This document shows, piece after piece, positions 3,158-57,690 of a stretch of DNA of 64,000 nt. Each line of letters begins with the position of its first letter. The first letter of the stretch is position 1. Location of the stretch: positions 90,150-154,149 of the forward strand of contig CAZEAI010000002.1 in NCBI GenBank assembly GCA_964510105.1, read 5' to 3'. A program made the position numbers and the translations under genes. Under the pieces are notes generated by a model. That model did no database searches, was not told where the DNA came from, and was given only the letters and a program-made list of their open reading frames with translations. This stretch comes from an uncultured bacterium (GTDB lineage Bacteria > Latescibacterota > MWCZ01).

Positions 3158-3176
3158 ACTACCGGTAAGGGCGGAG

Positions 3177-4082: not shown

Positions 4083-4083
4083 G

Positions 4084-4779
4084 TCATTCAGCCTCCCCGT
4101 CCACGCCGGAGGTGAGGTAGTCGACGACTTCGCCCTTAACGTTCGCCCAGTTCGACGCGAACAGCGTCTCGGCGCGTCTGCTCAGCGGATGCTGCATCAT
4201 CTGCTCGACGAGTGGGTACCGCATGGCCACCGCGTCGACGCCCGCCGCGAGAGCGAGCTCCACATCGCCGACGCCCTTCATGCTCACCGCGATGATCTCC
4301 GGCGAATCGTCAAGCCGATCATACCCGCGTCGGATATCGCTGAGCATGGCGGCAGGATCGATGCCAAACTCACGCGCACGGGAGACGAAGGGGCAGATAC
4401 CGAAGGCTCCCACCGTCGCGGCCGCCGACGCCTGCGCCACACTGAAGAGGGCCGTGGCGATGCAGTCGATCCCCTCCTGCTGGAGGATGCGGATCGCGCG
4501 GAATCCTTTGGGGTCGGCGATGACCTTGAATCCCACGCGTTCGCGGTCCAGCGTGTTCAACTCGCGAGCGCGTTCCACCAGTTCGTCTGTTGTCGGACCG
4601 TGTATCTGGATGAACGCGCGAAGATCGGTCGCCTCGAGAATCTGGGCGGTGATCTCGGCAAGGGCGAGCTCGCCCCGGAAATACTGGTCGAACCCCTGCG
4701 GGTTCGTCAGAATGCCCGCTACGCCAAGCTGCGTACATGCACGAATATCGTCAAGCGATCCGGCACCGTAGATGCGCAT
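4084..4779 (-). CDS. Transaldolase-fold protein of the fructose-6-phosphate-aldolase (FSA/TalC) type
   Basis: 231 aa, the short FSA/TalC size. Contains ILTNPQGF (compare VTTNPS). The segment VGFKVIADPKGFRAIRILQQEGIDCIATALFSVAQASAAATVGAFGICPFVSR lines up with the Schiff-base Lys strand and the following helices of FSA. Confidence 0.75.
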   Translation of the reverse strand: MRIYGAGSLDDIRACTQLGVAGILTNPQGFDQYFRGELALAEITAQILEATDLRAFIQIHGPTTDELVERARELNTLDRERVGFKVIADPKGFRAIRILQQEGIDCIATALFSVAQASAAATVGAFGICPFVSRAREFGIDPAAMLSDIRRGYDRLDDSPEIIAVSMKGVGDVELALAAGVDAVAMRYPLVEQMMQHPLSRRAETLFASNWANVKGEVVDYLTSGVDGEAE

Positions 4780-4782
4780 GGT

Positions 4783-5880: not shown

Positions 5881-6013
5881 CGGGCATCACTCCGTAGGCT
5901 GGCGGGCGATCAAGGCGAATCGTACCGCAACCGGATAGGGGAACCAATGCGCGGTACACAGAGCGAGGCCGCCCAAGCGTGCCTGAGCGACCTCGCTGAA
6001 GTCTGTCCGGGAC

Positions 6014-7237
6014 TCAGCCCCAGCCTTCGGCACCCTTGAGCGCACCGACGCGCTCTCCCGCTACTTTCGCGGAGTATCCACTCTCCCGGTGCGCGACTAT
6101 CGGATCGGGATGGAGGCCCCGGTCGGCGCGCACTTTCTCGACGAGTGGCCGGACGTCGGTCTGATACGCCTGCTGGAGAACGCGTTCGGCATCAACCGCA
6201 TCGTTGCGTTCGCGCGCATCTTCGAGCGCCGCAACATCCACGAGCAGCGACTTCGCGTAGATCGTCTGGATGTTCATTATCGACTGTATCATCGCTTCGA
6301 TCTTCTGTTTCACGATGTGGCTCTGGTCGATCATGTAGGTGATCGGCGTGCTGGACTGAACGCCATCGCGCTCGCCGGCCAGAATCTCTACGAAGATCAG
6401 GAATATCTCGTACGGGTTGATCGATCCGACGGTGAGGTCGTCGTCGGCGCTCTTGCGGTTGTTGAAGTGAAATCCGCCCAGCAACTTCTCATCCATAAGC
6501 GAGCCGACGATGTGCTCGATGTTCACACCATGGGCATGGTGTCCCGTATCCACCAGAACCTGAGCCCGTTCGCCGGCGTGACGACACATGAGCATCGCCA
6601 TCCCCCAGTCCGGGATGTCGGTGTGGTAGAAGCTGGGCTCGAATAGCTTGTACTCGATGAGCATGCGGCCCGTCTCCGGAAGCGCCTTGTGGATCTCCGC
6701 AAGGCTCTCCTGCATCCAGACTTTCCGTTTGCGCATGTTCGCCTGGCCGGGGTAGTTCGATCCGTCGCCGAACCACAGGCTGAGTATGTCGCTCCCGACG
6801 CTGCCCATGATCTCCACGCATTCGAGAATCGCGTCGAGGGCCTGTTTGCGGACCGATTCATCGGCGTTGGTGAGGCTTCCGTATTTGTACGCTTTGTCCT
6901 GAAACACGTTCGGATTCACCGCGCCGATCTCTATGCCCAGATCCTTCGCCTCCTGCAAGAGCGCGTCCCAATCGTCGACCTTGTCCCATGGGATGTGGAT
7001 TGCCACGCTGGGACATGCTCCGGTAAGACCGTTGACGTGCGAGGCATCCTGGAGGCGCTCATGCAGATCGCGCGCGGCGCCGGGCTCCTTGAAGACGCCA
7101 AAGCGGGTACCGGAGTTGCCGTATCCCCACGACGGAGTTTCGATCTTCAGATTCTTCAGGGCCTGTTCCAGCAGCCGGACGTTCATTCCGTGATCGGCGA
7201 GTTCTTCGGAGAGCGCATCGAAGGCTTTGTTGGGCAT
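6014..7237 (-). CDS. rhaI: L-rhamnose isomerase family sugar isomerase (Pseudomonas stutzeri/Streptomyces subtype, xylose-isomerase-like TIM barrel)
   Basis: PSWGYGNSGTRFGVF...AIHIPWDKVDDW matches my memory of the PSWGVGTGGTRF...HIPWDK landmarks of this subtype. I moved the start to ATG 7237 (MPNKAF...) because GGAG lies 8 nt upstream. The track start at 7336 adds a Cys/Arg-rich leader. Confidence 0.75.
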   Translation of the reverse strand: MPNKAFDALSEELADHGMNVRLLEQALKNLKIETPSWGYGNSGTRFGVFKEPGAARDLHERLQDASHVNGLTGACPSVAIHIPWDKVDDWDALLQEAKDLGIEIGAVNPNVFQDKAYKYGSLTNADESVRKQALDAILECVEIMGSVGSDILSLWFGDGSNYPGQANMRKRKVWMQESLAEIHKALPETGRMLIEYKLFEPSFYHTDIPDWGMAMLMCRHAGERAQVLVDTGHHAHGVNIEHIVGSLMDEKLLGGFHFNNRKSADDDLTVGSINPYEIFLIFVEILAGERDGVQSSTPITYMIDQSHIVKQKIEAMIQSIMNIQTIYAKSLLVDVAALEDARERNDAVDAERVLQQAYQTDVRPLVEKVRADRGLHPDPIVAHRESGYSAKVAGERVGALKGAEGWG

Positions 7238-7452
7238 CGGATACTCCGTTCGGGTAAGACGTTCCTGCTCGTGGCGCGCATTGGCGACACTCCGCCGCGC
7301 AGCCGGAACTGTGCAGACACAAACTTCGCCGCACACTCCGATTGTGGCAACCGGCTGATGCTCGTCGGGCAGGCGACGCGCCCGGAGGACCGGAGATCGT
7401 ACGGGCGGGCTGAACTACGGAACCGGCCCGCCGACATGGCGCCGCACCGTCG

Positions 7453-8208
7453 TCAGTGCACGAACTCCTCCTCAAGGAACGTCTCATTGGAGGTGTCGTC
7501 GTACCGCTTGTTGCACTCGCTGCATTTCGAGCAATCGCGGTGGTAGCAGTCGCGATGGATGCGGGTGGGGTACTGTTTGTGGAACGACTCCTGCGCCTTC
7601 TCGTCGATGAAGACATACCGTTCCTGACTCAGGCCGAACGCAGCGTACGACACGCGCGTGTCCTCGTCGGAAAGGTTCACCGGCTTACCACTCCACGAGC
7701 ACCTCACGATCCGATCCTCGTCTATCTCGGTCCGTCTCCGGGCGATCTCGTCCTCGGAAAGGTCGAATTCGATGAATGTCACGTTCGTGCGGGGCACGCG
7801 GTATCGCACCACGTCACCGGAGACGCACAGCACCTCATCCGGTGTGTAGAAGGTTTCCTCGCAGACCAGCGTGGCGCCGTCGCGCATATGCACGATGGTT
7901 CTGCCCGCTCGCGGAGGCGAGAACTTGGACCACCCGCAGCTCTCGCAGATCGTCGTAAAGAGGAACGCTCGTGTCTTCTTGCCGCAGGAGGGGCAGTGCC
8001 CCTCCTCTATCATCTTCGCCTCTTTGACCGTCTCCTTCGAGGCCTCGAATATCTTCGTGTCGACTTCGCGCGAAAGTCGATCGACCGCGCTTCGATCTTC
8101 GGAATTGAGAAGCGTCAGATGCTCCTGTAGATCGTCACCTTGATCAGCCATTGGCAGGTCAAGCCGTCGTTTGGCTTGTTCACGCTGCTTCTTGGTGATC
8201 TTAAGCAT
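7453..8208 (-). CDS. Cysteine-rich hypothetical protein (zinc-ribbon plus C-terminal Cys cluster)
   Basis: The ORF has balanced composition. CPSCGKK...CESCGW is a four-Cys ribbon, and there is a C-terminal HRDCYHRDCSKCSEC cluster. Start placed at ATG 8208 (MLKITKKQ), preceded by AGAGGA. No family recognised. Confidence 0.6.
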   Translation of the reverse strand: MLKITKKQREQAKRRLDLPMADQGDDLQEHLTLLNSEDRSAVDRLSREVDTKIFEASKETVKEAKMIEEGHCPSCGKKTRAFLFTTICESCGWSKFSPPRAGRTIVHMRDGATLVCEETFYTPDEVLCVSGDVVRYRVPRTNVTFIEFDLSEDEIARRRTEIDEDRIVRCSWSGKPVNLSDEDTRVSYAAFGLSQERYVFIDEKAQESFHKQYPTRIHRDCYHRDCSKCSECNKRYDDTSNETFLEEEFVH

Positions 8209-8772
8209 GGTATGGCGTCCTCTGGGCGCCCGGCCAGACCCGGACAGGTTCAGTGCATTCTTACGGAATGCGCGTGTGTACCAATCGATCAAGTTCAGGG
8301 ATAGAGTATAGCATACCGCCAGGCCGGAATGTTGACGGAGATCACGAGTTCGGAAAAACTTCGCATCGTGTCTGCACTCACGCTGTCGTCGCCAACCGTT
8401 GGGACCGGCAGGCGGCCCGACGTGTCAACGGGCCGAGGCACCTCCGGTCGGTCAGCGGGTCGGGCCCGTGCAGACATTCGCACTCGCAAACCACTGCCTG
8501 GGCCCGTGTTACATCGCCATCTATTGAGAATTCGCGAAGGATCACTGTCTCCCGCGCCCGTAGGTCGACGGTGTTCGGCTACCCGCAGACCGGTGCGCCA
8601 AGGCACCACTACATAGGCCAGTACTTAGGAAACATGAGTGGCGGGCCGTTGGGCGTCAACGCCCCGCGCGAGGGCCGGATCGACCGGCTACGCGGAGTAC
8701 ACGCGTCGACGCGGGCCGCGACCGGGAGTCGCGGCGCCGCTGGACGCGTAGTGCGGGAGTGTCAGACGGCGG

Positions 8773-8976
8773 TTAGAGCGCCGAAGCAATAATGTAGCCG
8801 ATCCCAACGCCGATCACACACGCGGCGACGCGGTAGGAAACCGGGATGACGACTTCGCGGACCCACTGAGCGGTCTCGCGTGAATGAAGTGTCGCGTAGA
8901 TATCGAGTTGCATGACAACCTCCCCTGCACTGCGCTGCACTGATACCCATTGCATACTATCAATGGGTTCCATCAT
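8773..8976 (-). CDS. Possible small membrane protein (67 aa)
   Basis: Single C-terminal hydrophobic helix (VSYRVAACVIGVGIGYIIASAL). Lower GC than its surroundings. No homology recognised, so it may be non-coding. Confidence 0.3.
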   Translation of the reverse strand: MMEPIDSMQWVSVQRSAGEVVMQLDIYATLHSRETAQWVREVVIPVSYRVAACVIGVGIGYIIASAL

Positions 8977-45411: not shown

Positions 45412-46299
45412 ATGAATCTCGGCATCATATCCCGCGGACCCCTGCTGTACAGCACACGACGGCTCGTCGAGTCGGCAGCAGCCCTTGGCCACGCCGCGAG
45501 TGTCGTGGACCCCATGGCGAGCATACTCCGCGTGAGCAACGGGACCTCCACGGTTGTGCATCGCGGCGAATCGCTCCCACCGTTCGACGCCGTCATACCG
45601 CGCATCGGACCGTCGGCCACGTCGCACGGGCTGGCACTCATCCGGCAGCTTGAACTTACCGGCGCGTACTGCGTCAACGGCTCCGACGCCGTTGCCCGTG
45701 GACGCGACAAGCTGCGATGCCTCCAGGCTCTCAGCGCCGAGGGGCTCCCGGTGCCGCGAACCGCCTTCGCGTCACGATCCGCCAACGTCGAAGAGCTGAT
45801 TGAACTCGTCGGCGGACCACCCGTCGTCATCAAGCTTCTGAACAGCTCGCAAGGCATCGGGGTCATGCTGGCGGAGACGGCGCAGATCGCGCACTCCGTC
45901 CTCGAGTCGTTCCTCTGCCTCGGGCAGAGCGTGCTCGTGCAGGAGTTCGTGCGCGAAGCCAACGGGCGGGACCTCCGCGCCCTGGTCGTCGGCGACGAGG
46001 TCGTAGCGGCCATTCGACGACAGGCCGCCGACGGAGACTTCCGCGCCAATATCCACCGTGGAGGAACGTCCGAGCCGCTGAAGCTCGATCGCGACCTCAG
46101 GAGCGTCGCTCGACAAGCCGCGCGCACCATCGGCCTGGATGTTGCGGGTGTCGACATGATAGAGAGCCACTCCGGGCCGCTGATTCTTGAGCTGAACGTC
46201 TCACCCGGCCTCGAGGGGGTAGAGACCGTCACCGGGGTAGACGTTGCGTCCCGTATCACCGACCTTGCCACCGAGCGCGCCCACCGCGCAGCGCGCTGA
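45412..46299 (+). CDS. rimK: RimK-family alpha-L-glutamate ligase (ATP-grasp)
   Basis: MNLGIISRGPLLYSTRRL..., PVVIKLLNSSQGIGV, DLRALVVGDEVVAA, AGVDMIES...LILELNVSPGLEG. Start at ATG 45412. Confidence 0.85.
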   Translation: MNLGIISRGPLLYSTRRLVESAAALGHAASVVDPMASILRVSNGTSTVVHRGESLPPFDAVIPRIGPSATSHGLALIRQLELTGAYCVNGSDAVARGRDKLRCLQALSAEGLPVPRTAFASRSANVEELIELVGGPPVVIKLLNSSQGIGVMLAETAQIAHSVLESFLCLGQSVLVQEFVREANGRDLRALVVGDEVVAAIRRQAADGDFRANIHRGGTSEPLKLDRDLRSVARQAARTIGLDVAGVDMIESHSGPLILELNVSPGLEGVETVTGVDVASRITDLATERAHRAAR

Positions 46300-46318
46300 C
46301 ACATCACGGAGATACGCC

Positions 46319-48016
46319 ATGGCAACCCCCCGTTTCCCTCTCGCAGCGGACCCCGCACCGGGCCGCGTCTCGAACATACTCTACGCGACTCCGCCGTTCG
46401 GGTATGTCGCGGAAACCGCCGACGAGTGGGCGGCGAAAGGGTTCTCCGGCTTCATCAGACCCGACGTGATGCAGGGCTGGGATGCGGATGTGTGGGAGCT
46501 TGAGGACGGCACACGGATCGTCGGCGAGGACAACCCGCGATTCAGAGCCGTTCAGTACATGATCGACCGGCTCCGCGCGGCGGGTGTTGCCGAGAACGTC
46601 ATGTCCGTGGCGTTCTCGCGACACGTCCCGGACTGGTTCGACGACGAGGGATGGGCTCAGTTGCTCGAGAACCTCCGGCAGGGCGCCGTGTTCGCCCGAC
46701 TGGCTGGATTCATCGGCGTGGCGCTGGACGACGAGTATGTCGAGGAGCAGTGGGGTCTGGGCTGGGAGCCCTATCGCACAGCAGGACTCGATCGCGACGC
46801 GCTTGTGGCACAAGCTCGTACGCGCGGACGACAGATTCAGCGAGCGATGCTGGACGAGTTCCCCGAGATGGTGTCCTTCCACCTCCCGGAGGCGTGGTCC
46901 ATCCACGGCGAACTCTCGCGACAGATGTTTCTCGGGTTCCTGGACGTGATCGCCGAAGCCGACGCGCCGGGTGGCCTTCACCTCATGACCGAGACGACCT
47001 ACTTCATGCGGGATGCCGACTGGATCGCGCGATACGGCTACGGTATGGATCGCACGCTGCTCGATGAGCTGGCACCCGATGTCGCGGACTACTGGGCGCG
47101 GCGCTGTGGGATATCTGTCGGCCTCTCCCCGCTGGGGTATCTCCGTTTCGTGCGAGACGAGCACGGCCGACGACTCGGTTACGGCGGCCGGCCCGAGGTG
47201 TTCGGCAACCGTATACTCAAGGCCGGTGAGGACAAGAGCGGCAACTACTCCGCCGAGACGTTCGCCGAGACGCACGCAGCGGCGCGCATGGTGAGCCGCC
47301 GATACGTATGGGTATTCTCCGGCGGACCCGTCTGGTGGCAGATGACCGACGAACAGTTGGAACGCTACGGTGGCAGCGACGTCGCCACGCTGCCGCTCAC
47401 GCCGGAATTCGACGACTATGCCGAAACGCTTCGCTCGCCGAAGATCATCGACCGTCCCGACACGTCCCGCCTGATGGACGCCGTGGCGGACAGGACTCCA
47501 ACCGACGCGCTTGCCGGGCTCGGCATACCGCCTGCCTGGTGGATGATCGGCCCGTTCACGAACGAAGACGGCATCGGATACGACCGGGAATTCGGCCCCG
47601 AGCACGGCATCGAGATCGACGCGGAGATTGCGGGCCTGCTCGGACCGGCACAGTGGCGGTACGTCCGGACGCCGCCCTCCGGCTACGCGGACATGAGCCG
47701 CCTCGTGGAAGGCGGTGTCGACATATGCGGATACGCCGCCACATGGATCGATCTCGATGTTGAGACCGACGCCGTAATCCGATTCGGCAGCGACGATGCG
47801 GGCCGCATCTGGATCAACGGGGAGCATGTACACGGCGTCAACGAGGAGCGCATCAACATCCCGGACGAGGACATCGTGCCGGTTCGGCTGCCGGCGGGCA
47901 GATCCGAGGTCCTGCTGAAGATTGTGAACTACCACGGCGGCTGGGGCTTCTACTTCCGCGTGACCGATGCCGCCGGCGACGAGCTACCGGGCCTCACGTA
48001 TCCCATCTCCGGCTGA
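46319..48016 (+). CDS. Hypothetical protein (565 aa) with C-terminal beta-sandwich-like module
   Basis: Balanced composition. ATG 46319 lies behind GGAGA. The last ~150 aa (WMIGPFTNEDG...AVIRFGSDDAGRIWINGEHV...LLKIVNYHGGWGFYFRVTD) look like a carbohydrate-binding or PA14-type jelly roll. No confident family. Confidence 0.65.
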   Translation: MATPRFPLAADPAPGRVSNILYATPPFGYVAETADEWAAKGFSGFIRPDVMQGWDADVWELEDGTRIVGEDNPRFRAVQYMIDRLRAAGVAENVMSVAFSRHVPDWFDDEGWAQLLENLRQGAVFARLAGFIGVALDDEYVEEQWGLGWEPYRTAGLDRDALVAQARTRGRQIQRAMLDEFPEMVSFHLPEAWSIHGELSRQMFLGFLDVIAEADAPGGLHLMTETTYFMRDADWIARYGYGMDRTLLDELAPDVADYWARRCGISVGLSPLGYLRFVRDEHGRRLGYGGRPEVFGNRILKAGEDKSGNYSAETFAETHAAARMVSRRYVWVFSGGPVWWQMTDEQLERYGGSDVATLPLTPEFDDYAETLRSPKIIDRPDTSRLMDAVADRTPTDALAGLGIPPAWWMIGPFTNEDGIGYDREFGPEHGIEIDAEIAGLLGPAQWRYVRTPPSGYADMSRLVEGGVDICGYAATWIDLDVETDAVIRFGSDDAGRIWINGEHVHGVNEERINIPDEDIVPVRLPAGRSEVLLKIVNYHGGWGFYFRVTDAAGDELPGLTYPISG

Positions 48017-48043: not shown

Positions 48044-49348
48044 ATGAGCGACGCGCGCGAGAAACTCCCAATATCCGGCCTCTGGACATGGGATCACAGC
48101 ACGAACTGGTGCGGCGATCCGACCATGGTCGAGAGCGGCTGCTTCAACCTCTACCGCAAGGAGCCCGGCAGCTTCGTGGAGGACTACACCGCGCTGCTGG
48201 AGTTCGCCGGAGAGCGTGACATCCCGTACCTGATGATCGCCGGGCTGTTCCGCGACTCCCACGGCGGCGAGCAGAGCGTCACGGAGGTGCTGCGTGTCGC
48301 GCGCCAGTGCGGCGTAAGAATGCTCGCCGGGATCGGCGTCAACTCCTACGGCGGATACTACTGGGAGGGCGAGCACCTCTACAGCCTGGAGACGTGGCTG
48401 CGGGACCATCCCGAGCTACGCGCTGTCGTACCGGAAGCGCCTGTTCAGTGGCGTCCCGGCCTGCACGGGCTGGGCATGGCCTGCCCGATGCGCGAGGAGA
48501 CGGTCCGCTGGTACGAGGACGGTATGCGCTGGCTGCTGGACAACTTCGACGTCGCCGGCGCGTATCTGGAAACCGGCGATTACGGCATCTGCCAGTGCGA
48601 GCTGTGCGTCGCGCGGTCGAAGGAACGCGAGCAGGCGAAGTTGGACCTCGCCGAGCAGGACTTCATCAACGAGGCCATCGCCGGAAGGGTCTCGCACGAC
48701 GACATCGCTCTCGCCATGCCGACGGTGATCGACGCGGCGTACGCCGCCCGACCCGACTGCGACGTGGTATACGCCACGTATTCCGGCTTCAGCGCCGACA
48801 TCGCCGAACGTCCGCCAGCATTCATCGATACGATCTCGCCGAAAGCAATCTGCCAGTGGACGCTCACCGACATGCCGTACCCGCAACCATGGGGCGAAGC
48901 GTCGCTACGGCCGCCCGCCGCGCGGAACATCGGCTACAGCCATCTGACGAGTCAGTGGAGCGCGGCGAACACGCGGCATCGCGTCGCGCTGCGCTACATC
49001 GGCGAGCAATTCGCGCGCGCGGCGGACGCCGAGATGGAAGGCGTGTTCATCCACGGCGAGCAGTCGCCGGACATGTGCTTCGCCGCGCGGATGAACTACG
49101 AGGCGTTCGCGTACTTCCGGAAGTATCCCGGCGCGCCGCTCGACGCCCTGGCGCAGGACGTACTTGCGGAGCACTTCGGCGGCGCGGACGAAGCCGTCGA
49201 GGCGGTGGAGTGGATGACGAGCCCGGCGGAGGAGCGGGAACTCGTGCGCCGGATGGAGGTCTGCTCCGCGCGGGCGAAGAAGATGAGCGGCCGTCAGGCG
49301 GATAGCTGGACCGAGCTGGGCGCGGTGGTGCAGGCGGTGCTGTTGTAG
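48044..49348 (+). CDS. Hypothetical protein (434 aa), possible TIM-barrel glycosidase-like
   Basis: AAGGAG RBS 8 nt upstream. Balanced composition. Cys cluster ICQCELC. No family recognised. Confidence 0.65.
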   Translation: MSDAREKLPISGLWTWDHSTNWCGDPTMVESGCFNLYRKEPGSFVEDYTALLEFAGERDIPYLMIAGLFRDSHGGEQSVTEVLRVARQCGVRMLAGIGVNSYGGYYWEGEHLYSLETWLRDHPELRAVVPEAPVQWRPGLHGLGMACPMREETVRWYEDGMRWLLDNFDVAGAYLETGDYGICQCELCVARSKEREQAKLDLAEQDFINEAIAGRVSHDDIALAMPTVIDAAYAARPDCDVVYATYSGFSADIAERPPAFIDTISPKAICQWTLTDMPYPQPWGEASLRPPAARNIGYSHLTSQWSAANTRHRVALRYIGEQFARAADAEMEGVFIHGEQSPDMCFAARMNYEAFAYFRKYPGAPLDALAQDVLAEHFGGADEAVEAVEWMTSPAEERELVRRMEVCSARAKKMSGRQADSWTELGAVVQAVLL

Positions 49349-49356
49349 GGAGGGGG

Positions 49357-50328
49357 TCAACGAGGGACGACAGCGTTCTCGATTGGGCCGAGCTCGACGT
49401 CCGGCGGCAGCTCAACTTCAGGCGGCAGCAGTATCTTGAAGGTCCTCCGCTTGCCGCTAATATAGCGAACAAGCGCATCCGGTTCTTGGTTGAAGATCGA
49501 TTGGATGATGGTAGCATAGGGCGAGAGGTTCAGCGTCTTCGGGCCACGACCCTCCGCAGCCTCACTTTCCAGCACAGTTCGAAGCGAGTCCAAGTGCATG
49601 CCAATCGCTTTCAGAAGCGCGTCCACGTTCTCTGCAAGCCGCCTCCTATCGCTCGGAAGAGCGGCATCATCCCACATCTCAGACAAGAGCCTGATGACCG
49701 TGTTTGTGCGCTCGCAGATGCGATCCGTCTTAGGGAAGTGTTTCGATTCGGCGAGCCGTCTGGCCTCGAAGATAGAGGTTTCCGCATGTTCGAGCATCGC
49801 TTTGACCTGGTAGGCGATCCGCTCCCTGGGCCAGCTCCGCTCGTTAGCTTTGAGGATGAGGTCGTGCGTGGCGATGCTCCACGCATGGGCAAGAAAGGTC
49901 TTTATCTGGACCTCGAAAGGCATTCCGTGCAGCTCGGATCGCGGGAGGCGTGGGTCGTCATGCCACTCCACGTACAGCCGCGTATCGTCAAATCGGAAAC
50001 AGTCTGCACACTTGGTTGTCGTTTCCAAGCTTTCCGGCCGGCGTTCCACCAGCCTGAACCGATCCGTGACCATCTTCTCGGCAGTGTCGACCGCACTCAG
50101 GTTATCGACGACAATGGTGCATGCGAAGAAGTCCTCTAGTCTTGTTGGATTCGACACGCGGCCGGTTTCTAACTTGAGAGCATAGCTTTCGAGCTCCTTT
50201 AGCCGACTCTCGTAGTGCCACCGAGGCTGTCTAGGCGTCACGATGATGTCGTCAACGCGTTCTTTGAGTGGCCGGTAGGCATCGATGCAGTGTGCATGCA
50301 CATCACGAACCGATGTCGGCACCTTCAC
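49357..50328 (-). CDS. Divergent RelA/SpoT-domain (small-alarmone-synthetase-like) nucleotidyltransferase with ~160-aa C-terminal extension
   Basis: aa 40-160 contain SRLKELESYALKL (Syn1-like), DFFACTIVV (Syn2-like) and FEVQIKTFLAHAWSIATHDLILK (Syn4/5, compare E-x-Q-x-R-T...W...H..YK). GTG start overlaps the DUF262 stop (GTGA at 50325-50328). Local GC is about 50-53 % on hand-counted lines. Confidence 0.7.
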   Translation of the reverse strand: MKVPTSVRDVHAHCIDAYRPLKERVDDIIVTPRQPRWHYESRLKELESYALKLETGRVSNPTRLEDFFACTIVVDNLSAVDTAEKMVTDRFRLVERRPESLETTTKCADCFRFDDTRLYVEWHDDPRLPRSELHGMPFEVQIKTFLAHAWSIATHDLILKANERSWPRERIAYQVKAMLEHAETSIFEARRLAESKHFPKTDRICERTNTVIRLLSEMWDDAALPSDRRRLAENVDALLKAIGMHLDSLRTVLESEAAEGRGPKTLNLSPYATIIQSIFNQEPDALVRYISGKRRTFKILLPPEVELPPDVELGPIENAVVPR

Positions 50329-51434
50329 GACGCAACTCCCAGCATCGCCTCTCCGAGCGCGCGATGCCTCTCTTTGCGCTGAGGCGGCTCGGTCCTCGCG
50401 CCCATGCTGCTCTGGTAGTACGCAAAAGCCAGCCTATCCAGACGCGGCACGGCTTCGCCATCCGCTAGCTCCAAGGCCTTCTCCTGCTTGAATCTCCCGA
50501 CGCTGTTCATGAACTCCTCATACTGCTTTCCAAGGTCTGCCGGAGATGGGAGTCGGGGTAGATTCAGGGCAACGACAGCCCAGAGCGAATAGAAATTGGT
50601 CATATCCCGCGCGTACTCGGAAATCGCCGACGAGTCCCGTTCCACTTCGAGCAGATATCCTTTGGCGGAATCGAACTGCTGCCGCACGGACGGCCCATCG
50701 AGAGACGAATCCGCGAGGTCATCGACGTCATCGACGTCATCGACGTCATCGAGATCATCGTACTTGGCGTAGTAGCTGTTGATATCAGCTTGGTCAAATC
50801 CGCCCACATCGCCCCTGAAAAGGACTATGAGTAACTCCGACAGAAACTGAACGTCGCGCATTCTCTTGCGACGCGCTCTAGTCACGACACAGAGTTTCTC
50901 CCAATCGACGGATTCGGACTCCGTCTCTACGAGCTGGATGAACCATCCGCGGTACCTGGCGTGTCGGAGTTCCTGGTCTTTGAGATTCCGCTGGTTGCGG
51001 TTAAGCCGGTCGAATATCTCGTTGACAGTCCTGGTGTCAATGATATTCGTCATCTCAACGGGTATCATGTAGTCCCAGAACGCGCGGGCCAGCTCGTCGT
51101 CGTCGACGATGGATCGCCATTTCTGCCCTGCCAGCCGCGAGTCTCCGAAGTCCTTGTCTATCGCCAGCTTGTTGGCAGTGAACTGGAAGATGGTCTCGAG
51201 CCTCTGCTTGCCGTCCACCACTGAGTACACCGTCTTCCCATCTTCGATCTGCTTGTGAAGAAATATGGGAGGACTGGGATAGCCTCTGAAGATTGTGTCC
51301 AAGAAGAAGCGTCTATCCGCCGCACTCCAGACGCTTCTCCTCTGATATGGCGGGTCTATGTTCAGCTGCCCAACCGCCTCCAGATCGATAAACCAGCTGA
51401 TATCCTGCGTAGTCAAACGGCGGTTAATGACCAT
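50325..51434 (-). CDS. DUF262 (GmrS-type ParB-like) domain protein without a recognisable DUF1524/His-Me nuclease half
   Basis: PPYQRRSVWSAADRRFFLDTIFRGYPSPPIFL...VVDGKQRLETI is the classic DUF262 core (Y-Q-R...D-G-Q/K-Q-R). ATG 51434 lies behind GGAGGA. An acidic DDVDDVDDVDD linker is encoded by a 9-bp repeat. Confidence 0.85.
   Translation of the reverse strand: MVINRRLTTQDISWFIDLEAVGQLNIDPPYQRRSVWSAADRRFFLDTIFRGYPSPPIFLHKQIEDGKTVYSVVDGKQRLETIFQFTANKLAIDKDFGDSRLAGQKWRSIVDDDELARAFWDYMIPVEMTNIIDTRTVNEIFDRLNRNQRNLKDQELRHARYRGWFIQLVETESESVDWEKLCVVTRARRKRMRDVQFLSELLIVLFRGDVGGFDQADINSYYAKYDDLDDVDDVDDVDDLADSSLDGPSVRQQFDSAKGYLLEVERDSSAISEYARDMTNFYSLWAVVALNLPRLPSPADLGKQYEEFMNSVGRFKQEKALELADGEAVPRLDRLAFAYYQSSMGARTEPPQRKERHRALGEAMLGVAS
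50718..50753. repeat. In-frame 9-bp tandem repeat (GTCATCGAC x3 plus GTCATCGAG) inside the DUF262 gene
   Basis: Read directly at 50718-50753. It encodes the DDVDDVDDVDD(L) stretch on the minus strand. Confidence 0.9.
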
Positions 51435-52860
51435 GGCATCGTCCTCCGTACCGAGAGCTTTCGCTCGGTCCGCGGCCTCTATCTACGAAATGGGGTATCT
51501 CTTTCACCGCGGAAACCGTGAGGTGCCGACAGCGGATGCGATTGTTGAGCCAGTCGTCCGTACTTCGTGACTTCAGTTGCGCTACTGCCGCACGGCACTG
51601 CCTCAGCGTACCGTCGCGTGGGAGCAGGACCACTAGATGGTTCTCTACGGCGACGAGGCCCTTTCCCGCCACGATGGTCGCGACACCTCTGTGTCGGTCG
51701 CTGGGACTTGATGTCCGGTGAATCGTCACGAAAGGTCGCGGAAACACGGTACCGCTGAAACGTCGGGTCTCAGGAATCTCTCGAACGGTCTGCCAAGCGG
51801 GTGCCGTACGCGCATGGAGGTATGGGTAGACTGGGCCGATGAGCGGATCACGGTGGGGTACAACAGCACCTACGTGGACATCGAACGCGTCTCCTATGGT
51901 GGTGAGATCGAGCGACGTGGCGGATATATCCTCTGGCCAGCCACACTCCTCACCGTCCGCGCCGTTCACAACTGCGTGCAGGAGAAACACATCCACGTCC
52001 GTGTGTTCGTCGAAGCGACCTGCCGGTTCCACCTCCAGCGACCCACAACGTGCCCCGATGCTGTCACGCCACTTCCGATATCGAGACCCGCTACGAAGCA
52101 CGTCCGGCAGGACTGCGACGACCTGTTGTCCGCCGACGGCGCGGTCGAGTATCTGATCGAGAAACCAAGCGGCAACCTGAATCTTCCCCCGCGCCCATCG
52201 ACAGTCGGATGGTGCGAGCATGTGCCCAAACGGAGGATTGACCGCGAAACATGCGTTGCTCGGAAGAGCGTTCTGAGCTAGTGCGTCGCCGATCCGTACA
52301 CCTGTGAAAGCTTCGTAGGCATCTCTGGATCCGAGTCGGGAGGAGGATTCTGGGTGCAGGCTTTGCACCAAGAGTGCTAGTCGAAGTTGTGCCGCACGGA
52401 CGAACTCCGGGTGCAAATCGTGACCGAACAGGAGGGAGGACCAGATGGCAAGAGTGTGTTGCAGGTCAACGCCTCTGGGGAGGTACTTGGCTGACGCCAG
52501 AAGCAGATTCCCCGCCCCACATGCGGGATCAACAACTGCAGCGCCCGTGCCGAGAATCGGACCCAACCGCTCTGCCACTCTCTCCGCGAGGGCGCCATTC
52601 GTGAAGAAGATACCAGCATCTCGTCGCGTACGGAGCGGGACGAGTTCCTGCAGCGCGGTTGTCGCGTCACCATTCAGAAAGCCCGATATGAGTCGGTCGC
52701 GGTCGCCGGCCTGGGGTTGCAGCGCGAAGAGGCTTTCCATGCTGTCGCAGTAGGCAGCAAATCGCGCCACATCGTGGCGAACCAGATCGCGAGATGCCGC
52801 GAACACGGATCGCGATCCTGATTCGTTTACCCGGTCGGCAGCCAACTCTGGATCGGTCAC
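51424..52860 (-). CDS. Gamma-class N6-adenine DNA methyltransferase with its own putative target-recognition domain
   Basis: GIFFTNGALAERV (motif X-like), VVDPACGAGNLL (motif I, aa 109-120) and FAVNPPFG (motif IV, aa 205-212), in gamma-class order. The C-terminal ~230 aa are TRD-like. GTG start, so the exact start is uncertain. Stop TAA lies 11 nt inside the next ORF. Confidence 0.85.
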   Translation of the reverse strand: MTDPELAADRVNESGSRSVFAASRDLVRHDVARFAAYCDSMESLFALQPQAGDRDRLISGFLNGDATTALQELVPLRTRRDAGIFFTNGALAERVAERLGPILGTGAAVVDPACGAGNLLLASAKYLPRGVDLQHTLAIWSSLLFGHDLHPEFVRAAQLRLALLVQSLHPESSSRLGSRDAYEAFTGVRIGDALAQNALPSNACFAVNPPFGHMLAPSDCRWARGKIQVAAWFLDQILDRAVGGQQVVAVLPDVLRSGSRYRKWRDSIGARCGSLEVEPAGRFDEHTDVDVFLLHAVVNGADGEECGWPEDISATSLDLTTIGDAFDVHVGAVVPHRDPLIGPVYPYLHARTAPAWQTVREIPETRRFSGTVFPRPFVTIHRTSSPSDRHRGVATIVAGKGLVAVENHLVVLLPRDGTLRQCRAAVAQLKSRSTDDWLNNRIRCRHLTVSAVKEIPHFVDRGRGPSESSRYGGRCHGH

Positions 52861-52955
52861 AACTCTCGCCCCGTATACCTTCCCACGATCTCACGATGTA
52901 GCACGGTCAACACCGAAGGTACCGTGTCGCGCCACGACCTCCAAGCTGACACCGC

Positions 52956-55193
52956 CTACCCACTCACCAGCGTCCGATCGATCACCTCGTCGCGCACCTC
53001 CGGCGTCAGCGTGCGGAAGTACGCGCTGTAGCCGCTGATGCGCACGACCAGGTCCGGATGCAACTCCGGGTGCTCGCGCGCTTCCAGCAGCACTTCTGGA
53101 TCGACGAGGTTCACCTGCAACACGGACCCGCCGTAGTCGACGAAGCACCGCATCACGGCGCTCAACACGTCGGGACGGTGCCGCGTGCGAATGACCGGCA
53201 TCTTCACGTCGAGCACGGCGACGACGGGGTACGCCGTCATGTCCAGCGGCTCCAGCGCGCGGAGCACCTTGCTCGCGCCGCACTCGCGGCCCAGCGCGAT
53301 CATGCTCGGGCTCATGCCCGGCGAGAGGTGCTCCCCCGCGCGACGTCCATCGGGCGTGGCGCCGTTCATGTAGCCGAAGTTCGTGAACGTGCGGAACGAG
53401 AACAGGCTCGCCTCGTAGCATCCGCCGCGAGCGTTCTTGTGCCCGCGCGAGACACGCGCCACGTCCGCGAACACTTTTCCGGAGAACTCGCGGATCGCCG
53501 GGTCGTCGTGGCCGAACTTCGGGATGCGGTTCGCAAGGTGGCGGCGGAACGCCTCCTCGCCGTCGAAGTCGCTGTCGAGCATGTCGCGAAGCTGCTCGAA
53601 CGGCACATCGCGCTTCTCGAACACCGTCTCACGCACGGCGTAGAGCGAGTCGATGAGGGTCCCGATCCCCGCGAGGGAGACGCTGCCGAAGCTGTACCGC
53701 GCGCCGCCGGCCATCATGTCGCGCGCATTGTCGATGCAATCGTCGATGGTGGCGGAGTGCAGCGGACACGGGTTGTACTGCGTCCCGACGCGCTCCGCCT
53801 CGTTCCGAAACTCAATGTGTGTCTTCAGCGTCGCTTCGAGGTTCGCCAGGAACGCGTCGTAGACCTCGTCGAATGTGGCGCAGTCGTCGTACGTGCGGAT
53901 GCTGATCCCGTCCCGCTCGGAGAGGAACGCCCACCGGTCGGGGAAGAAGCCCATGAGGAACACCGCCGCCAGGCTCATGTAGATCGTCGCGCGGCTGTTG
54001 ATCTCGGTATTCTCCAGCACGTTCTCCTGGCAGCCGCCACCGACGTATATCCGGCAGTCGGCAAGCGCTTTGCCCATCTTCACGTTCGCGGGGATTACCA
54101 CGTCGTCGTTGAAGATGGAGAGCGAGTTGCAGCCGTCCGCCATGAGGTTCGCCAGCAGATCGAAGTATTCCGTCGGATGCTCGCCGGATACGCGGACGTT
54201 GAGCTTCGGATCGACCAACGAGAACTCGTCGTACACTTCGGCGATCATCCGTGTGATGTCGTTGAAGATCGCCACGCCGTCGGCGCCGCAGCCACCGAGC
54301 ATCACGGTGCCATTCGTGCCGGCGTGATTCGTCGCATCGCGCATGCCGAACCGCGCGTCGTTCTTAGCGAGGAAGAACGACAACAGGTCCTTCGCCTCGT
54401 CGCGCGCGATGCGTCCCGCGGCGAGGTCGGCATCGTAATACGGCGCGAGAATGCGGTCCAGATGCCCGATGATGCTGATGCCGTTGCCTTCCAGCGACTG
54501 CGTCGTCTCCCGCATGAACAGGATCGTCGCGAGCGCTTCGCGGAACGTCTCCGGCGGAGCGGCCGGGATGCGGCGGTACATCCGCGACATGGTGGCGAGG
54601 CGGTCGCGAATGACCGGATCGTCCTCGGCGGCCAACATGCGCTCGGCCTCGTCGACGAACCGCTCGGCGAGACGCATCTGCGCGCGCAGGCCGGCGATCA
54701 TGCAGTCGAGGAACTCGCGCTCGTCGTCGTCCGCGGTGGACCTCCGCTGGTCGGCGCGCGCGATCAGGCCGTCCAGCCCATGGCGGAAAACATTGTCCAT
54801 ACCGAGGCAGTGGTGGTTGTCGTCCAGCACGAGCCAGCCAAGCGACAGGCCCGATTCGTTGCACGGCTGCCACCACTCCCTGCCGGACGCCTCAAGCTCC
54901 TGGCCGAAGGGCTGCTGCTTGATCCATGATCCGACGCCGCCGGCGCCCAAGTCTGACCGCGGCTTGCCGACGCCGACCTCGTAGCAGAACGGGAAGTGGC
55001 GAAAGACGTGCACGGGACAGTGTTCCGCTATGGCCTCGTAGACGATCGTCTTGCCGCGGTATGTGGAGAGCCCCGGCTCGGCAGCGAACGCATCGGTGAG
55101 GTGCCGCTCGATGTGTGAGACATCGTTCGGCATGGACGCGTAGTACGCGTCGAACTCCTGGTCGAACGCCGCGCGCTCGTCTACGAATGCCAT
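52956..55193 (-). CDS. Glycyl radical enzyme (PFL-like superfamily), eliminase/dehydratase-type active site
   Basis: 745 aa. C-terminal glycyl-radical motif VVRISGYSAYF, Cys-loop YVGGGCQENVL (C-x-E), and ATPDGRRAGE. AAGGAAG RBS. Confidence 0.9.
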   Translation of the reverse strand: MAFVDERAAFDQEFDAYYASMPNDVSHIERHLTDAFAAEPGLSTYRGKTIVYEAIAEHCPVHVFRHFPFCYEVGVGKPRSDLGAGGVGSWIKQQPFGQELEASGREWWQPCNESGLSLGWLVLDDNHHCLGMDNVFRHGLDGLIARADQRRSTADDDEREFLDCMIAGLRAQMRLAERFVDEAERMLAAEDDPVIRDRLATMSRMYRRIPAAPPETFREALATILFMRETTQSLEGNGISIIGHLDRILAPYYDADLAAGRIARDEAKDLLSFFLAKNDARFGMRDATNHAGTNGTVMLGGCGADGVAIFNDITRMIAEVYDEFSLVDPKLNVRVSGEHPTEYFDLLANLMADGCNSLSIFNDDVVIPANVKMGKALADCRIYVGGGCQENVLENTEINSRATIYMSLAAVFLMGFFPDRWAFLSERDGISIRTYDDCATFDEVYDAFLANLEATLKTHIEFRNEAERVGTQYNPCPLHSATIDDCIDNARDMMAGGARYSFGSVSLAGIGTLIDSLYAVRETVFEKRDVPFEQLRDMLDSDFDGEEAFRRHLANRIPKFGHDDPAIREFSGKVFADVARVSRGHKNARGGCYEASLFSFRTFTNFGYMNGATPDGRRAGEHLSPGMSPSMIALGRECGASKVLRALEPLDMTAYPVVAVLDVKMPVIRTRHRPDVLSAVMRCFVDYGGSVLQVNLVDPEVLLEAREHPELHPDLVVRISGYSAYFRTLTPEVRDEVIDRTLVSG

Positions 55194-57367: not shown

Positions 57368-57690
57368 TCAGGGAAGCAGGCTTCCGTGAGCTACGAGCGA
57401 CCTCCAGTGGAGTCCGACTTCTACGATCTCGCGTCGAAAAGGCTGCTGCCTAATCCATGAGCCGACGCCGACTTCGTGGCGGATCGGGAAGTGTTGAAAC
57501 ACACACACCGGACAGCGTTCCGCTATCGCGTCGCAGGCGATCACCTTGCCACGGCACGACGATAGGCCGGGGCTCGGAGGCGAACGCGCCGGCCAGGTGT
57601 CGCTCGGTATCCGGCGCGTCGTTCGCCATGGAAGCGCGATACGACCCCAACCCATGAGCGAACGTCGTACGCTCGTCTACGGTTACTTCA
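57368..57690 (-). pseudogene. Truncated, frameshifted 5' fragment of a glycyl radical enzyme gene
   Basis: Two track ORFs in different frames both match the N-terminus of the GRE at 55193. One is 57450-57650 (YRASMANDAPDTERHLAGAFASEP); the other is 57368-57655 (AIAERCPVCVFQHFPIRHEVGVGSWIRQQPF). The start codon is lost, there is a 36-nt deletion, and the fragment ends after about 105 codons. Confidence 0.75.

Follow-up and report, generated by a model that had tools for sequence, protein, structure and literature searches.

A DUF262 protein paired with a divergent RelA/SpoT-fold enzyme beside N6-adenine methyltransferases: a candidate undescribed anti-phage module

The operon described here lies on the minus strand of a 64,000-nucleotide stretch of DNA from an uncultured Latescibacterota bacterium (the whole stretch is referred to below as the window). 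It comprises genes for a DNA methyltransferase (MTase), a DUF262 protein and a RelA/SpoT-like protein (Rel), with the following features:

51424-52860, minus strand: MTase open reading frame, 478 aa, GTG start
50325-51434, minus strand: DUF262 open reading frame, 369 aa, ATG start
49357-50328, minus strand: RelA/SpoT-like (Rel) open reading frame, 323 aa, GTG start
51424..51447, minus strand: MTase/DUF262 junction, sequence read directly
50325..50328, minus strand: GTGA junction, Rel GTG start and DUF262 TGA stop in a 4-nt overlap
50714..50758, minus strand: 9-nt tandem repeat coding for an acidic DDV-repeat insertion in the window DUF262 protein
49357..52900, no strand: low-GC island in the composition profile, GC 0.55-0.61 versus ~0.67 in the flanks

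The list of open reading frames and the sequence itself place the three minus-strand genes, the 11-nt overlap and the GTGA junction exactly where the initial annotation had put them, and the translational coupling that it claimed can be read directly in the overlapping stops and starts. In minus-strand reading, the 11-nt overlap runs from the DUF262 ATG (51434-51432) to the MTase TAA (51426-51424), with a GGAGGA sequence (51447-51442) located 7 nt 5' of that ATG. No terminator-like site was found on the minus strand within the three-gene operon, which hints at a single transcript for all three genes. The GC trough coincides exactly with the MTase, DUF262 and Rel genes and, together with the numbers of homologues (1364 for Rel at E <= 1e-3 and 2076 for the DUF262 protein at E <= 1e-10), it indicates that the open reading frames are not due to chance. 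According to a Pfam scan, the island is bordered by a gene for a PFL-like glycyl-radical enzyme on one side and by an unannotated 434-aa gene on the other; the immediate flanks consist of metabolic genes, with no defence island. The three-gene operon is horizontally acquired.

The first gene encodes a gamma-class N6-adenine (N6A) DNA methyltransferase, which has no restriction endonuclease (REase) domain and belongs to a clade of lone short MTases. Its Pfam N6_Mtase score of 20.3 bits is just under 20.4, but the PADLOC model MTase_II gives 2.9e-11 (mad2, 4e-9) and an iterated profile links the protein to Eco57I/PstI-type MTases, so that the initial domain assignment stands. Residues 109-120 read VVDPACGAGNLL, and NPPF is found further on at 208-211. 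Among 17 members of the clade, motif I (DPACGAGNLL) is conserved, motif IV (NPPF) is invariant and the C-terminal half is conserved too; NPP[YF] occupies motif IV in 62 of 63 MTases. Judged from its retained catalytic motifs, the window MTase is apparently active.

The second protein is composed of a GmrS-like ParB/Srx NTPase domain followed by a helical C-terminal domain. Its identification as a DUF262 protein agrees with the Pfam GmrSD_N/DUF262 score (E 2e-22) and with the predicted structure (pLDDT 80), the best structural matches of which are SspE, Noc and BrxU. In PADLOC the best match is NsnA (E 1.5e-26, residues 17-224); the protein also matches PD-T4-2_A (E 2e-19) and the "REase_II" model PDLC03418 (372 positions, i.e., of similar length; E 1.8e-8). 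The characteristic motifs are YQRRSVW (30-36) and DGKQRL (74-79), and YQR.S.W, DGKQR and QELRH are invariant in all 63 sequences compared. As had been proposed, there is no nuclease half in this protein: at E<=1 neither DUF1524 nor any other nuclease profile gave a match, and profiles, model and structural matches gave no nuclease motif or fold in the C-terminal half. The DDV-repeat insertion is confined to the window copy, is missing from the homologues and falls in a low-confidence loop of the model (230-244).

Rel consists of an N-terminal catalytic domain of ~195 aa and a conserved helical C-terminal domain. The RelA/SpoT fold suggested initially is confirmed by a Pfam RelA_SpoT match (31.3 bits, E 2.6e-7; gathering score 27) and by Foldseek, in which the top matches of the predicted structure (pLDDT 81) are RelP, RelQ, CapRel (7ztb) and FaRel2 (8pu4); for the N-domain, the probability is 1.0 and the target-normalised TM is 0.6-0.7 to RelP/RelQ. 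At the sequence level, Rel is only marginally similar to small alarmone synthetases (SAS) and CapRel of solved structure (E 0.01-0.06). The motifs are SRLKELESYALKL (41-53), DFFACTIVV (66-74) and FEVQIKTF...HDLILK (138-160), and R42, K44, K52, D66, E139, Q141, K143 and K160 are invariant (63/63). Two departures from the canonical RSH motifs, DFFACT for DxxGxR and Phe for the G-loop Tyr, mean that pyrophosphokinase chemistry is not assured. In addition, 62 of 63 relatives contain Tyr159, where the window Rel has Leu, so that this particular copy may be impaired. Of the CapRel-like layout that had been envisaged, only the synthetase fold of the N-terminal domain is borne out; for the helical domain at the C-terminus there is no match to anything known. 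All motifs first quoted for the three proteins are present in the translations, and with their predicted catalytic residues conserved the enzymes look active.

Across genomes, the invariant unit is a two-gene module of DUF262 and Rel, and the pairing is obligate. Of 80 loci, spread over many phyla of bacteria and archaea, 78 have the DUF262 gene directly upstream of Rel; in the other two, a contig end interrupts the locus. The junction distance ranges from -14 to +38 nt (62/62 loci), the two genes overlapping or lying no more than 14 nt apart, and the two proteins co-evolve, with a rho of 0.68 between their pairwise identities. The neighbourhood survey shows loci in other genomes where all three genes co-occur; of the triad originally put forward, the conserved core is the DUF262+Rel pair, and the class of MTase is exchanged. 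The distribution of the cassette in bacteria and archaea is patchy and HGT-like, and one copy, flanked by Tn3 and recombinase genes, is carried by a conjugative plasmid of Rhizobium. The flanks vary among loci and include integrases and some defence genes; most neighbours are housekeeping genes, and matches to defence-system models represent a minority of the scanned neighbours (a tally not of distinct proteins).

Among the 71 loci with enough flanking DNA for an MTase, 69 contain an N6A MTase within ~3 kb of the pair. By class, 28 loci have a separate PstI/BsuBI REase, 7 a fused PstI/BsuBI REase, 8 an Eco57I-type IIG enzyme plus MTase, 19 a lone short MTase and 9 another MTase; in one locus the pair is found with a PLD nuclease and a DrmB-like protein. 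The MTase is thus accompanied by its own restriction nuclease in 43 of 78 loci (35 PstI/BsuBI-type and 8 Eco57I-type). The window locus falls in the 19-locus lone-MTase clade without an REase, which spans many phyla and in which the MTase is kept abutting DUF262; this clade looks like a stable, selected three-gene unit rather than the decay of a restriction-modification (R-M) system. The partner class has been exchanged at least ~12 times, and the MTase barely follows the pair in sequence (rho 0.09). Even where the accompanying MTases are very different, the DUF262 protein retains ~46% identity, and a PstI-type R-M is found next to close relatives of the window pair; this argues both against the reading of a specific unmethylated sequence and against direct binding of DUF262 to the MTase. 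The earlier notion that Rel replaces the nuclease can at best hold for the REase-less clade to which the window locus belongs; since an REase is already present in most loci, the pair cannot be regarded simply as standing in for a nuclease.

Neither PADLOC, NCBIfam nor the literature yielded a named system composed of MTase, DUF262 and Rel, in line with the initial annotation, which knew of none. Because dozens of lineages in bacteria and archaea carry this unnamed DUF262+Rel module beside R-M genes, it is a strong candidate for an anti-phage system that has yet to be described. The named systems closest to it are PD-T4-2 (DUF262+HEPN) and Menshen, validated defence systems in which a DUF262 protein (PD-T4-2_A and NsnA, respectively) is coupled with swappable effectors (PMC12065111, PMC10952713, PMC9519451). 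PD-T4-2 of E. coli ECOR65, validated experimentally against T4 (Vassallo et al. 2022, PMC9519451), likewise consists of two genes, the first encoding a nuclease-less DUF262 protein of ~360 aa and the second the effector. Its effector is a HEPN-domain protein (PMC10952713) instead of a RelA/SpoT-fold enzyme, the PADLOC model PD-T4-2_B does not match the window Rel, and the descriptions consulted do not mention an MTase or R-M partner for it. In Menshen (NsnABC; Millman 2022), NsnA is a ParB-DUF262 protein without DUF1524 and a putative sensor controlling a polymorphic effector (PMC12065111). Unlike the present module, Menshen requires the ABC ATPase NsnB and the inPIN-effector protein NsnC, both absent at the window locus, and contains neither a RelA/SpoT effector nor an MTase.

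The same N-terminal ParB/Srx NTPase domain, with its DG(Q/K)QR motif, occurs in SspABCD-SspE and GmrSD/BrxU, and the best structural matches noted above include SspE and BrxU. In contrast to the window DUF262 protein, SspE, GmrSD and BrxU carry a His-Me (DUF1524) nuclease within the same polypeptide; they are concerned with phosphorothioate or modified cytosines rather than m6A, and their effector action is DNA cleavage or nicking.

Like the toxSAS defence proteins (CapRel SJ46, FaRel2) and the housekeeping SAS enzymes (RelP/RelQ), Rel has the synthetase fold in its N-terminal ~195 residues, with RxKxxxSxxxK, Asp and ExQx(K/R) conserved, and as in toxSAS the catalytic domain is followed by an extra C-terminal domain. 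The toxSAS enzymes pyrophosphorylate a nucleotide or tRNA. Rel differs in its very remote sequence similarity and in the motif departures described above, its C-terminal domain is unrelated to the CapRel pseudo-ZFD, and it is paired with a DUF262 protein where toxSAS enzymes have a small or fused antitoxin; no toxSAS system is known to be linked to an MTase. PANGU type I, composed of the YejK-like NAP Pag1A and the GRel toxSAS Pag1B (bioRxiv 10.64898/2026.04.06.716658), is also bicistronic and combines a DNA-binding sensor with a RelA/SpoT-type effector to which a C-terminal domain for binding the partner is added; the effector is activated by the sensor, which has no classical antitoxin role. 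Where the present module has a DUF262/ParB-Srx NTPase, PANGU has a YejK-like nucleoid protein as its sensor, its effector is of the GRel subfamily with an acidic DNA-mimic domain, and a link to an MTase is not reported.

From this composition we infer a defence role, in which a methylation-linked sensor (the DUF262 NTPase) and a toxSAS-like effector would form a module attached to an MTase in a horizontally acquired operon, a reading to which we give an even chance. The proposed core is the DUF262 protein (ParB/Srx-fold NTPase plus helical domain) coupled to a divergent, pyrophosphokinase-like RelA/SpoT-fold enzyme, almost always attached to a gamma-class N6A MTase that is lone here and, in most relatives, part of a complete type II R-M system of the PstI/BsuBI or Eco57I type. 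The MTase would write an m6A self-mark on host DNA, and the DUF262 protein would act as an NTP-driven sensor or regulator of DNA state, as in SspE, where the DUF262 domain reads the self-modification made by partner genes (PMC10952713). Rel would be under DUF262 control, and unmarked or foreign DNA, or loss of the mark, would release or activate it; PANGU offers an example of a DNA-bound sensor able to activate a toxSAS (bioRxiv 10.64898/2026.04.06.716658). Rel would then pyrophosphorylate a nucleotide or tRNA, leading to cell arrest and abortion of the infection.

An unlikely but credible alternative is that the pair is blind to methylation and serves as a guard or back-up of R-M, monitoring the integrity or activity of the R-M/MTase, or the DNA damage or ends that result from restriction or phage attack, and launching an abortive response against phages that inhibit or evade restriction. 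A precedent would be PrrC, an ABC-ATPase/anticodon nuclease that is encoded in the EcoprrI type I R-M locus and restrained by the type I R-M complex; it too is a translation-targeting suicide effector inside an R-M locus and a second line of defence, although the proteins are unrelated and the DUF262+Rel pair is linked, at the level of genes, to type II systems or to a lone MTase. The complete R-M attached to the pair in 43/78 loci would suit such a guard, as would the tolerance of PstI-type, Eco57I IIG and lone-MTase partners, and in one locus of a PLD nuclease plus a DrmB-like protein, while DUF262 hardly changes; in PANGU, moreover, loss of DNA binding activates the toxSAS (bioRxiv 10.64898/2026.04.06.716658). 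However, the feature common to the loci is the MTase and not the nuclease, the 19 loci of the window's clade offer no REase for it to guard and nevertheless stably retain an MTase that looks active, and the MTase-pair rho of 0.09 speaks against direct protein-protein monitoring. Rather unlikely is a toxin-antitoxin (TA) or addiction module without specific DNA sensing, stabilising a mobile MTase/R-M cassette, in which Rel would be the toxSAS-like toxin and the upstream DUF262 NTPase would neutralise it by binding or by hydrolysing its nucleotide product, like small-alarmone-hydrolase antitoxins. The family-wide antitoxin-first order with overlapping stop and start, the toxSAS fold, the mobile and patchily distributed cassette and the broad-specificity NTPase activity of the DUF262 domains of BrxU and SspE (PMC10952713) are in line with it. 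An N6A MTase neighbour in 69/71 loci is unexpected for a generic TA pair, and none of the known toxSAS antitoxins resembles a two-domain protein of 369 aa in which ParB/Srx NTPase motifs are invariant. A TA role does not preclude defence: CapRel combines both.

It is improbable that the MTase and DUF262 make up an unconventional R-M in which DUF262 does the restricting, as a ParB-like nuclease or DNA-targeting enzyme, and Rel is an accessory regulator supplying it with a nucleotide cofactor or signal. Nuclease activity is reported for some ParB/Srx-fold proteins, e.g., Osa, and Osa (4o7k) is a weak structural match of the DUF262 model; the "REase_II" match and the lone-MTase clade, which is devoid of any other nuclease, point the same way. 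Against this, the DUF262 domain of the characterised GmrSD, BrxU and SspE proteins is an NTPase or sensor and cleavage requires DUF1524 (PMC4619093, PMC10952713), most loci already possess a dedicated REase, and the C-terminal half is free of detectable nuclease motifs or folds. Most improbable in our estimate is a physiological or stress-signalling unit linked to methylation but unrelated to defence, in which a small alarmone synthetase would be regulated by DNA state. The metabolic genes around the window operon, the predominance of housekeeping neighbours across loci and the ordinary stress roles of SAS enzymes would be compatible with such a unit, but the patchy, HGT-like spread in bacteria and archaea, the GC trough, the plasmid carriage and the near-obligate linkage to restriction-modification genes all argue against it, and the nearest DUF262 relatives are validated defence proteins.

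The initial annotation had described three co-directional genes, for an N6-adenine methyltransferase (MTase), a DUF262 protein and a RelA/SpoT-like protein (hereafter Rel), and had proposed them as an undescribed defence system. Their coordinates and lengths agree exactly with the ORF listing, and all of the motifs quoted for them are found in the proteins. The genes and their nearest surroundings are as follows:

51424-52860, minus strand: MTase, 478 aa, GTG start
50325-51434, minus strand: DUF262 protein, 369 aa, ATG start
49357-50328, minus strand: Rel-like protein, 323 aa, GTG start
52956-55193: PFL-like glycyl-radical enzyme gene
48044-49348, plus strand: unannotated ORF, 434 aa, downstream of the island, no Pfam match at E ≤ 1e-4
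46244-48016, plus strand: unannotated ORF, 590 aa, downstream of the island, no Pfam match at E ≤ 1e-4

The minus-strand sequence also bears out the overlapping junctions: the MTase TAA (51426-51424) lies within the DUF262 ORF, whose ATG at 51434 is preceded by GGAGGA (51447-51442, 7 nt 5' of the start codon), and the sequence GTGA at 50328-50325 holds the stop codon of DUF262 (TGA) as well as the start codon of Rel (GTG). No internal minus-strand terminator was found in the operon by promoter and terminator scans, which gave nothing decisive. The composition profile shows a GC trough over the three genes, 0.55-0.61 compared to about 0.67 on either side. The neighbours identified by the Pfam scan are the PFL-like glycyl-radical enzyme gene on one side and the 434-aa gene on the other, with RimK-like and alcohol-dehydrogenase-like genes farther away. 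The three genes thus make up a discrete insertion amid metabolic genes, outside any visible defence island. A repeat search of the window found no att-like repeats flanking it. Beyond the PFL-like gene, a 95-aa minus-strand ORF (57368-57655) shows 51% identity over 68 residues to residues 40-107 of the glycyl-radical enzyme (E 1e-20), and looks like a gene fragment or duplication remnant.

The distribution of these genes was assessed by scanning one genome per species, which yielded 80 related loci. The bacterial carriers belong to Desulfobacterota, Acidobacteriota, Bacteroidota, Planctomycetota, Chloroflexota, Actinomycetota, Nitrospirota, Alpha-, Beta- and Gammaproteobacteria and Cyanobacteria-related lineages, and the archaeal ones to Thermoplasmata and Nitrosopumilaceae. 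A DUF262 homologue is located immediately upstream of Rel, on the same strand, in 78 of the 80 loci; the remaining two end at contig edges. The end of DUF262 and the beginning of Rel overlap, or are separated by at most 14 nt, in each of the 62 loci that could be scored, and the pairwise identities of the two proteins are strongly correlated (Spearman 0.68). No conserved extra gene beside the cassette was found among the 80 loci. Single-sequence phmmer searches, which detected the MTase at only about 17 of the 80 loci, had suggested that it is a mere accessory. This view was overturned by an iterated profile: in 69 of the 71 loci with enough flanking DNA, it revealed an N6A MTase of the gamma class no more than about 3 kb from the pair. 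The frequent gap of about 1 kb between MTase and pair is occupied by a BsuBI/PstI restriction endonuclease (REase) gene (Pfam E ~1e-62). The triad proposed as a unit does co-occur in other genomes, but its invariant core comprises only the DUF262 and Rel genes. Judged from these comparisons, the conserved unit is a two-gene DUF262+Rel module, nearly always docked to a module that contains an N6A MTase.

Partner classes counted among the 78 loci with a DUF262+Rel pair
MTase and separate PstI/BsuBI REase: 28/78
MTase fused to PstI/BsuBI REase: 7/78
Eco57I-type IIG enzyme (~995 aa) and M.Eco57I-like MTase: 8/78, Bacteroidota
Lone short MTase without REase (window type): 19/78
Other Eco57I/TaqI_C-type MTases: 9/78
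No MTase found: 7/78, 5 of which end at a contig edge

The sequence of the MTase follows that of the pair only weakly (rho 0.09; the observed value was reached in 30 of 500 Mantel permutations), but the partner class is clade-structured on the Rel+DUF262 tree, requiring 12 Fitch changes as opposed to a mean of 28.6 in shuffled data. Together, these results show a partner that is co-inherited inside clades, yet has been exchanged at least about 12 times. L001, a close relative of the window pair that adjoins a PstI-type restriction-modification (R-M) system, provides an example of such an exchange.

Two of the partner arrangements occur at the following loci:

L026, 4198-6789, and likewise L030, L036, L039, L061 and L068: fused MTase-REase polypeptide, upstream of the pair
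L029, L033, L034, L035, L040, L046, L047 and L048, ~2370-8975 in each: Bacteroidota four-gene array, co-directional

The fused polypeptides, 783-864 aa in length and directly 5' of DUF262+Rel, combine an Eco57I/N6_Mtase-type MTase with both BsuBI/PstI REase domains; here, an R-M system that classically consists of two proteins has been fused into one. The Bacteroidota arrays each encode an Eco57I-type IIG enzyme (~995 aa; HSDR_N+Eco57I+TaqI_C), an M.Eco57I-like MTase of 535 aa, the DUF262 protein and Rel. Among the loci with good flanks, L028 (8998-11975) is alone in having no MTase. It instead encodes a PLD-family nuclease (PLDc_2) and a protein of 704 aa that lacks MTase motifs and is Cys-rich at its C-terminus, a combination possibly reminiscent of DrmC and DrmB of DISARM; a HipA toxin gene is located upstream.

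One copy of the cassette is carried by a conjugative plasmid of Rhizobium, flanked by Tn3 and recombinase genes; the annotation of its products there goes no further than 'DUF262 domain-containing protein', 'hypothetical protein' and 'N-6 DNA methylase'. In a bulk scan of 137 flanking ORFs from 74 loci, the majority of the neighbours were housekeeping genes; some were integrases, resolvases or transposases, and others were defence genes (CapP twice, DRT-type reverse transcriptases, a pAgo-associated SIR2, DrmD, Cas1 and other MTases). No homologue was found in a collection of phage genomes. In its behaviour, the cassette resembles a mobile island that is small and self-contained.

The assignment of the first gene of the window to the N6-adenine MTases is marginal in Pfam (N6_Mtase, 20.3 bits for a threshold of 20.4), but PADLOC MTase_II (E 2.9e-11) and the iterated profile, which links it to the gamma-class N6A MTases of Eco57I/PstI type, are in agreement with it. 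An NCBIfam scan of the window proteins gave nothing above any curated cut-off; the matches of the MTase to the BREX PglX and Alw26I families are far below theirs and were rejected. Motif IV reads NPPY or NPPF in 62 of 63 loci. Within the REase-less clade with a lone short MTase, to which the window belongs, motif I (DPACGAGNLL), motif IV (NPPF) and the entire C-terminal half of the MTase are conserved, its overall identity being 35-53%. Because of this conservation, and because the MTase gene abuts the DUF262 gene, the lone-MTase cassette is best regarded as a stable, widely transferred three-gene operon and not as a decaying R-M system. Pfam detected no REase domain in the window island, and the flanking genes are metabolic; with the SAM-dependent MTase motifs I and IV present and the cognate REase absent, a complete type II R-M system was rejected for the window.

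The second protein matches GmrSD_N (PF03235, E 2e-22), and no match to DUF1524 or any other nuclease was obtained in Pfam even at E ≤ 1, as had been noted from the sequence. In its model (pLDDT 80) the C-terminal half is all-helical, and the best structural matches, in a comparison of folds that is itself weak, are SspE, the ParB-family CTPase Noc and BrxU; a PDB sequence search found nothing. The protein is thus predicted to comprise the ParB/Srx N-domain and helical region of GmrSD-like proteins, with the nuclease absent. The motifs YQRxSxW, DGKQR and QELRH are fully conserved in 63 loci. Like GmrSD, BrxU and SspE, the family has an N-terminal DUF262 domain with a DGQQR-type motif (DGKQR here, 63/63); unlike them, it lacks the C-terminal DUF1524 His-Me finger nuclease, and with only 369 aa and a helical C-terminal half its membership in that group was rejected. 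The best PADLOC match is NsnA of Menshen (E 1.5e-26, residues 17-224 versus 58-261 of the 385-position profile), a ParB-DUF262 protein. In Menshen, genes for the ABC ATPase NsnB and the inPIN effector NsnC directly follow NsnA, whereas the three-gene operon gives no match to either in Pfam or PADLOC. PD-T4-2_A (PDLC04027, E 2.1e-19) is matched over the N-terminal domain only (residues 20-198 versus 48-232 of 363), and the downstream protein has a RelA/SpoT fold, not that of the HEPN-type PD-T4-2_B. Menshen and PD-T4-2 were both therefore rejected.

The RelA/SpoT-like character of the third protein is upheld by a match to RelA_SpoT (PF04607, residues 41-162, E 2.6e-7, 31.3 bits for a gathering score of 27) and by the synthetase fold of its AF2 model (pLDDT 81), in which the N-terminal domain is alpha/beta. 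Its sole PADLOC match, the candidate PDC-S33, is weak (E 2.5e-6). Foldseek aligned the model with the small alarmone synthetases RelP and RelQ (5dec) at E ~5e-7 and target-normalised TM values of 0.6-0.7, the best PDB match being RelP 6fgj (E 5e-7, TM 0.71 normalised to the target); CapRel 7ztb and FaRel2 8pu4 rank after these. Residues ~200-323 form a confidently predicted helical domain outside the matches to all four. By sequence profile, the similarity of the family to solved SAS and CapRel chains is marginal (E 0.013-0.058). Among 63 loci R42, K44, K52, D66, E139, Q141, K143 and K160 are invariant, and S48 and H155 are also kept, these ten positions being conserved in 62-63 of the 63. In the profile alignment the invariant residues correspond to the RxKxxxSxxxK motif, the Mg-binding Asp and the ExQx(R/K) motif of RSH synthetases. 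The family differs from RSH and toxSAS enzymes in that DFFACT replaces the canonical DxxGxR (Gly to Ala, Arg to Thr) and the G-loop Tyr is a Phe (Phe111). In addition, residue 159 of the window protein (49852-49854) is a Leu, compared to a Tyr in 62 of 63 family members (H...YK motif), and this substitution might weaken the window copy catalytically.

Rel belongs to a uniform family of about 323 aa: there are 1364 matches at E ≤ 1e-3 in a 90%-clustered database, and 295 clusters at E ≤ 1e-30, nearly all of 320-335 aa, in an exhaustive 50%-clustered library, among which no recurrent fusion was found. Two long ORFs, one of 1360 aa ending in DUF262 (L076) and one of 896 aa starting with Rel (L051), have no extra domain in Pfam; they were therefore treated as run-on ORFs in high-GC DNA and not as Rosetta-stone fusions.

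Two further systems were considered and rejected, PANGU type I, since the partner here is a DUF262 protein and not a YejK-like NAP sensor beside a GRel toxSAS, and MADS, since MAD2 scored 27 bits in NCBIfam for a cut-off of 720 and the other mad genes are absent. No PADLOC model, NCBIfam model or literature description of a DUF262 and RelA/SpoT pairing was found in our searches, in accordance with the earlier statement that no named system of this composition was known. As the concept fits the established patterns of modular sensor-effector defence and of R-M loci with an abortive module inside them, we do not call the module categorically new. DUF262+Rel is nevertheless a strong and experimentally tractable candidate for a defence module that is widespread, linked to R-M and undescribed; the observation behind the initial annotation stands, and its interpretation holds in part, refined from a triad to this R-M-linked pair.

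The best-supported reading, to which we give roughly an even chance, is that the MTase supplies an m6A self-mark to the DNA, that the DUF262 protein acts as an NTP-driven sensor or regulator of DNA state, and that Rel would be a toxSAS-like effector, bringing the cell to arrest once it is activated. We favour it because the MTase linkage is near-obligate, also in the long-lived REase-less clade, where functional dependence seems the only plausible reason for keeping an apparently active MTase beside the pair. There are also precedents: the DUF262 domain of SspE reads the self-modification made by linked genes and controls the effector by NTP hydrolysis (PMC10952713), NsnA and PD-T4-2_A, the nearest named DUF262 proteins, are parts of validated systems in which the effector can be swapped (PMC12065111, PMC9519451), and PANGU shows that a toxSAS of two domains can be activated by a sensor bound to DNA (bioRxiv 10.64898/2026.04.06.716658). 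Across the loci the DUF262 protein is little changed while very different MTase types are exchanged, so that recognition of each specific sequence, or binding of each MTase, is hardly possible. A simple reader of unmethylated sites is thus disfavoured, and DUF262 would have to sense m6A generically or a downstream consequence. A more specific form of the self-mark reading is tentative and less likely than not: the m6A mark would gate a nucleotide- or tRNA-pyrophosphorylating toxSAS-like effector, not a nuclease, with the nuclease-less DUF262 NTPase as the link from DNA modification state to effector, adding a second abortive layer to type II R-M in most lineages and replacing the REase in the window clade.

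Alternatively, the pair may be a PrrC-like guard or back-up of R-M, which we consider unlikely; an REase is present among relatives (BsuBI/PstI in 35 loci, Eco57I-type IIG in 8) and is absent from the window clade. The pair could also be a toxin-antitoxin or addiction module, with Rel kept neutral by DUF262, possibly through hydrolysis of the Rel product; this would be in keeping with the tight gene coupling, but appears quite unlikely. With no nuclease match in the DUF262 protein, it is improbable that this protein is itself the restriction component and Rel its accessory, and a non-defence signalling role is the least probable of all.

If functional, DUF262+Rel would be an unnamed, widespread module (295 clusters at 50% identity, in many bacterial phyla and several archaeal lineages) and would join two separately studied fields, the discrimination of self from non-self by modification and toxic effectors of the alarmone-synthetase type. 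The module would also provide a new effector class for the family of modular DUF262 sensors (PD-T4-2, Menshen, Dazbog, SspE) and a new type of partner for toxSAS-like enzymes, and it might help to explain the stable upkeep of some orphan adenine methylases. An m6A-gated pyrophosphokinase effector in the place of a nuclease, if true, would be of high interest. The idea is directly testable, because cultured strains carry the cassette, near-obligately linked to PstI/BsuBI- and Eco57I-type R-M. These carriers include Myroides indicus DSM 28213 and Pedobacter steynii DSM 19110, both of the PstI type, as well as Pseudomonas pudica, Rhodococcus tibetensis, Microvirga spp. and a Terriglobus sp. A DUF262 homologue (P0207) is also encoded by the complete genome of Geomonas nitrogeniifigens.

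Short tandem repeats occur in two of the window genes. Near the Rel C-terminus, an 18-nt tandem duplication (49391-49426, repeat family D5) encodes PPEVELPPDVEL. The other lies in the DUF262 gene:

50714-50758: 9-nt tandem repeat, four copies, encoding the acidic DDVDDVDDVDDL insertion

This insertion, which is missing from the homologues and sits in a low-confidence loop of the model (residues 230-244), may be a recent repeat expansion.
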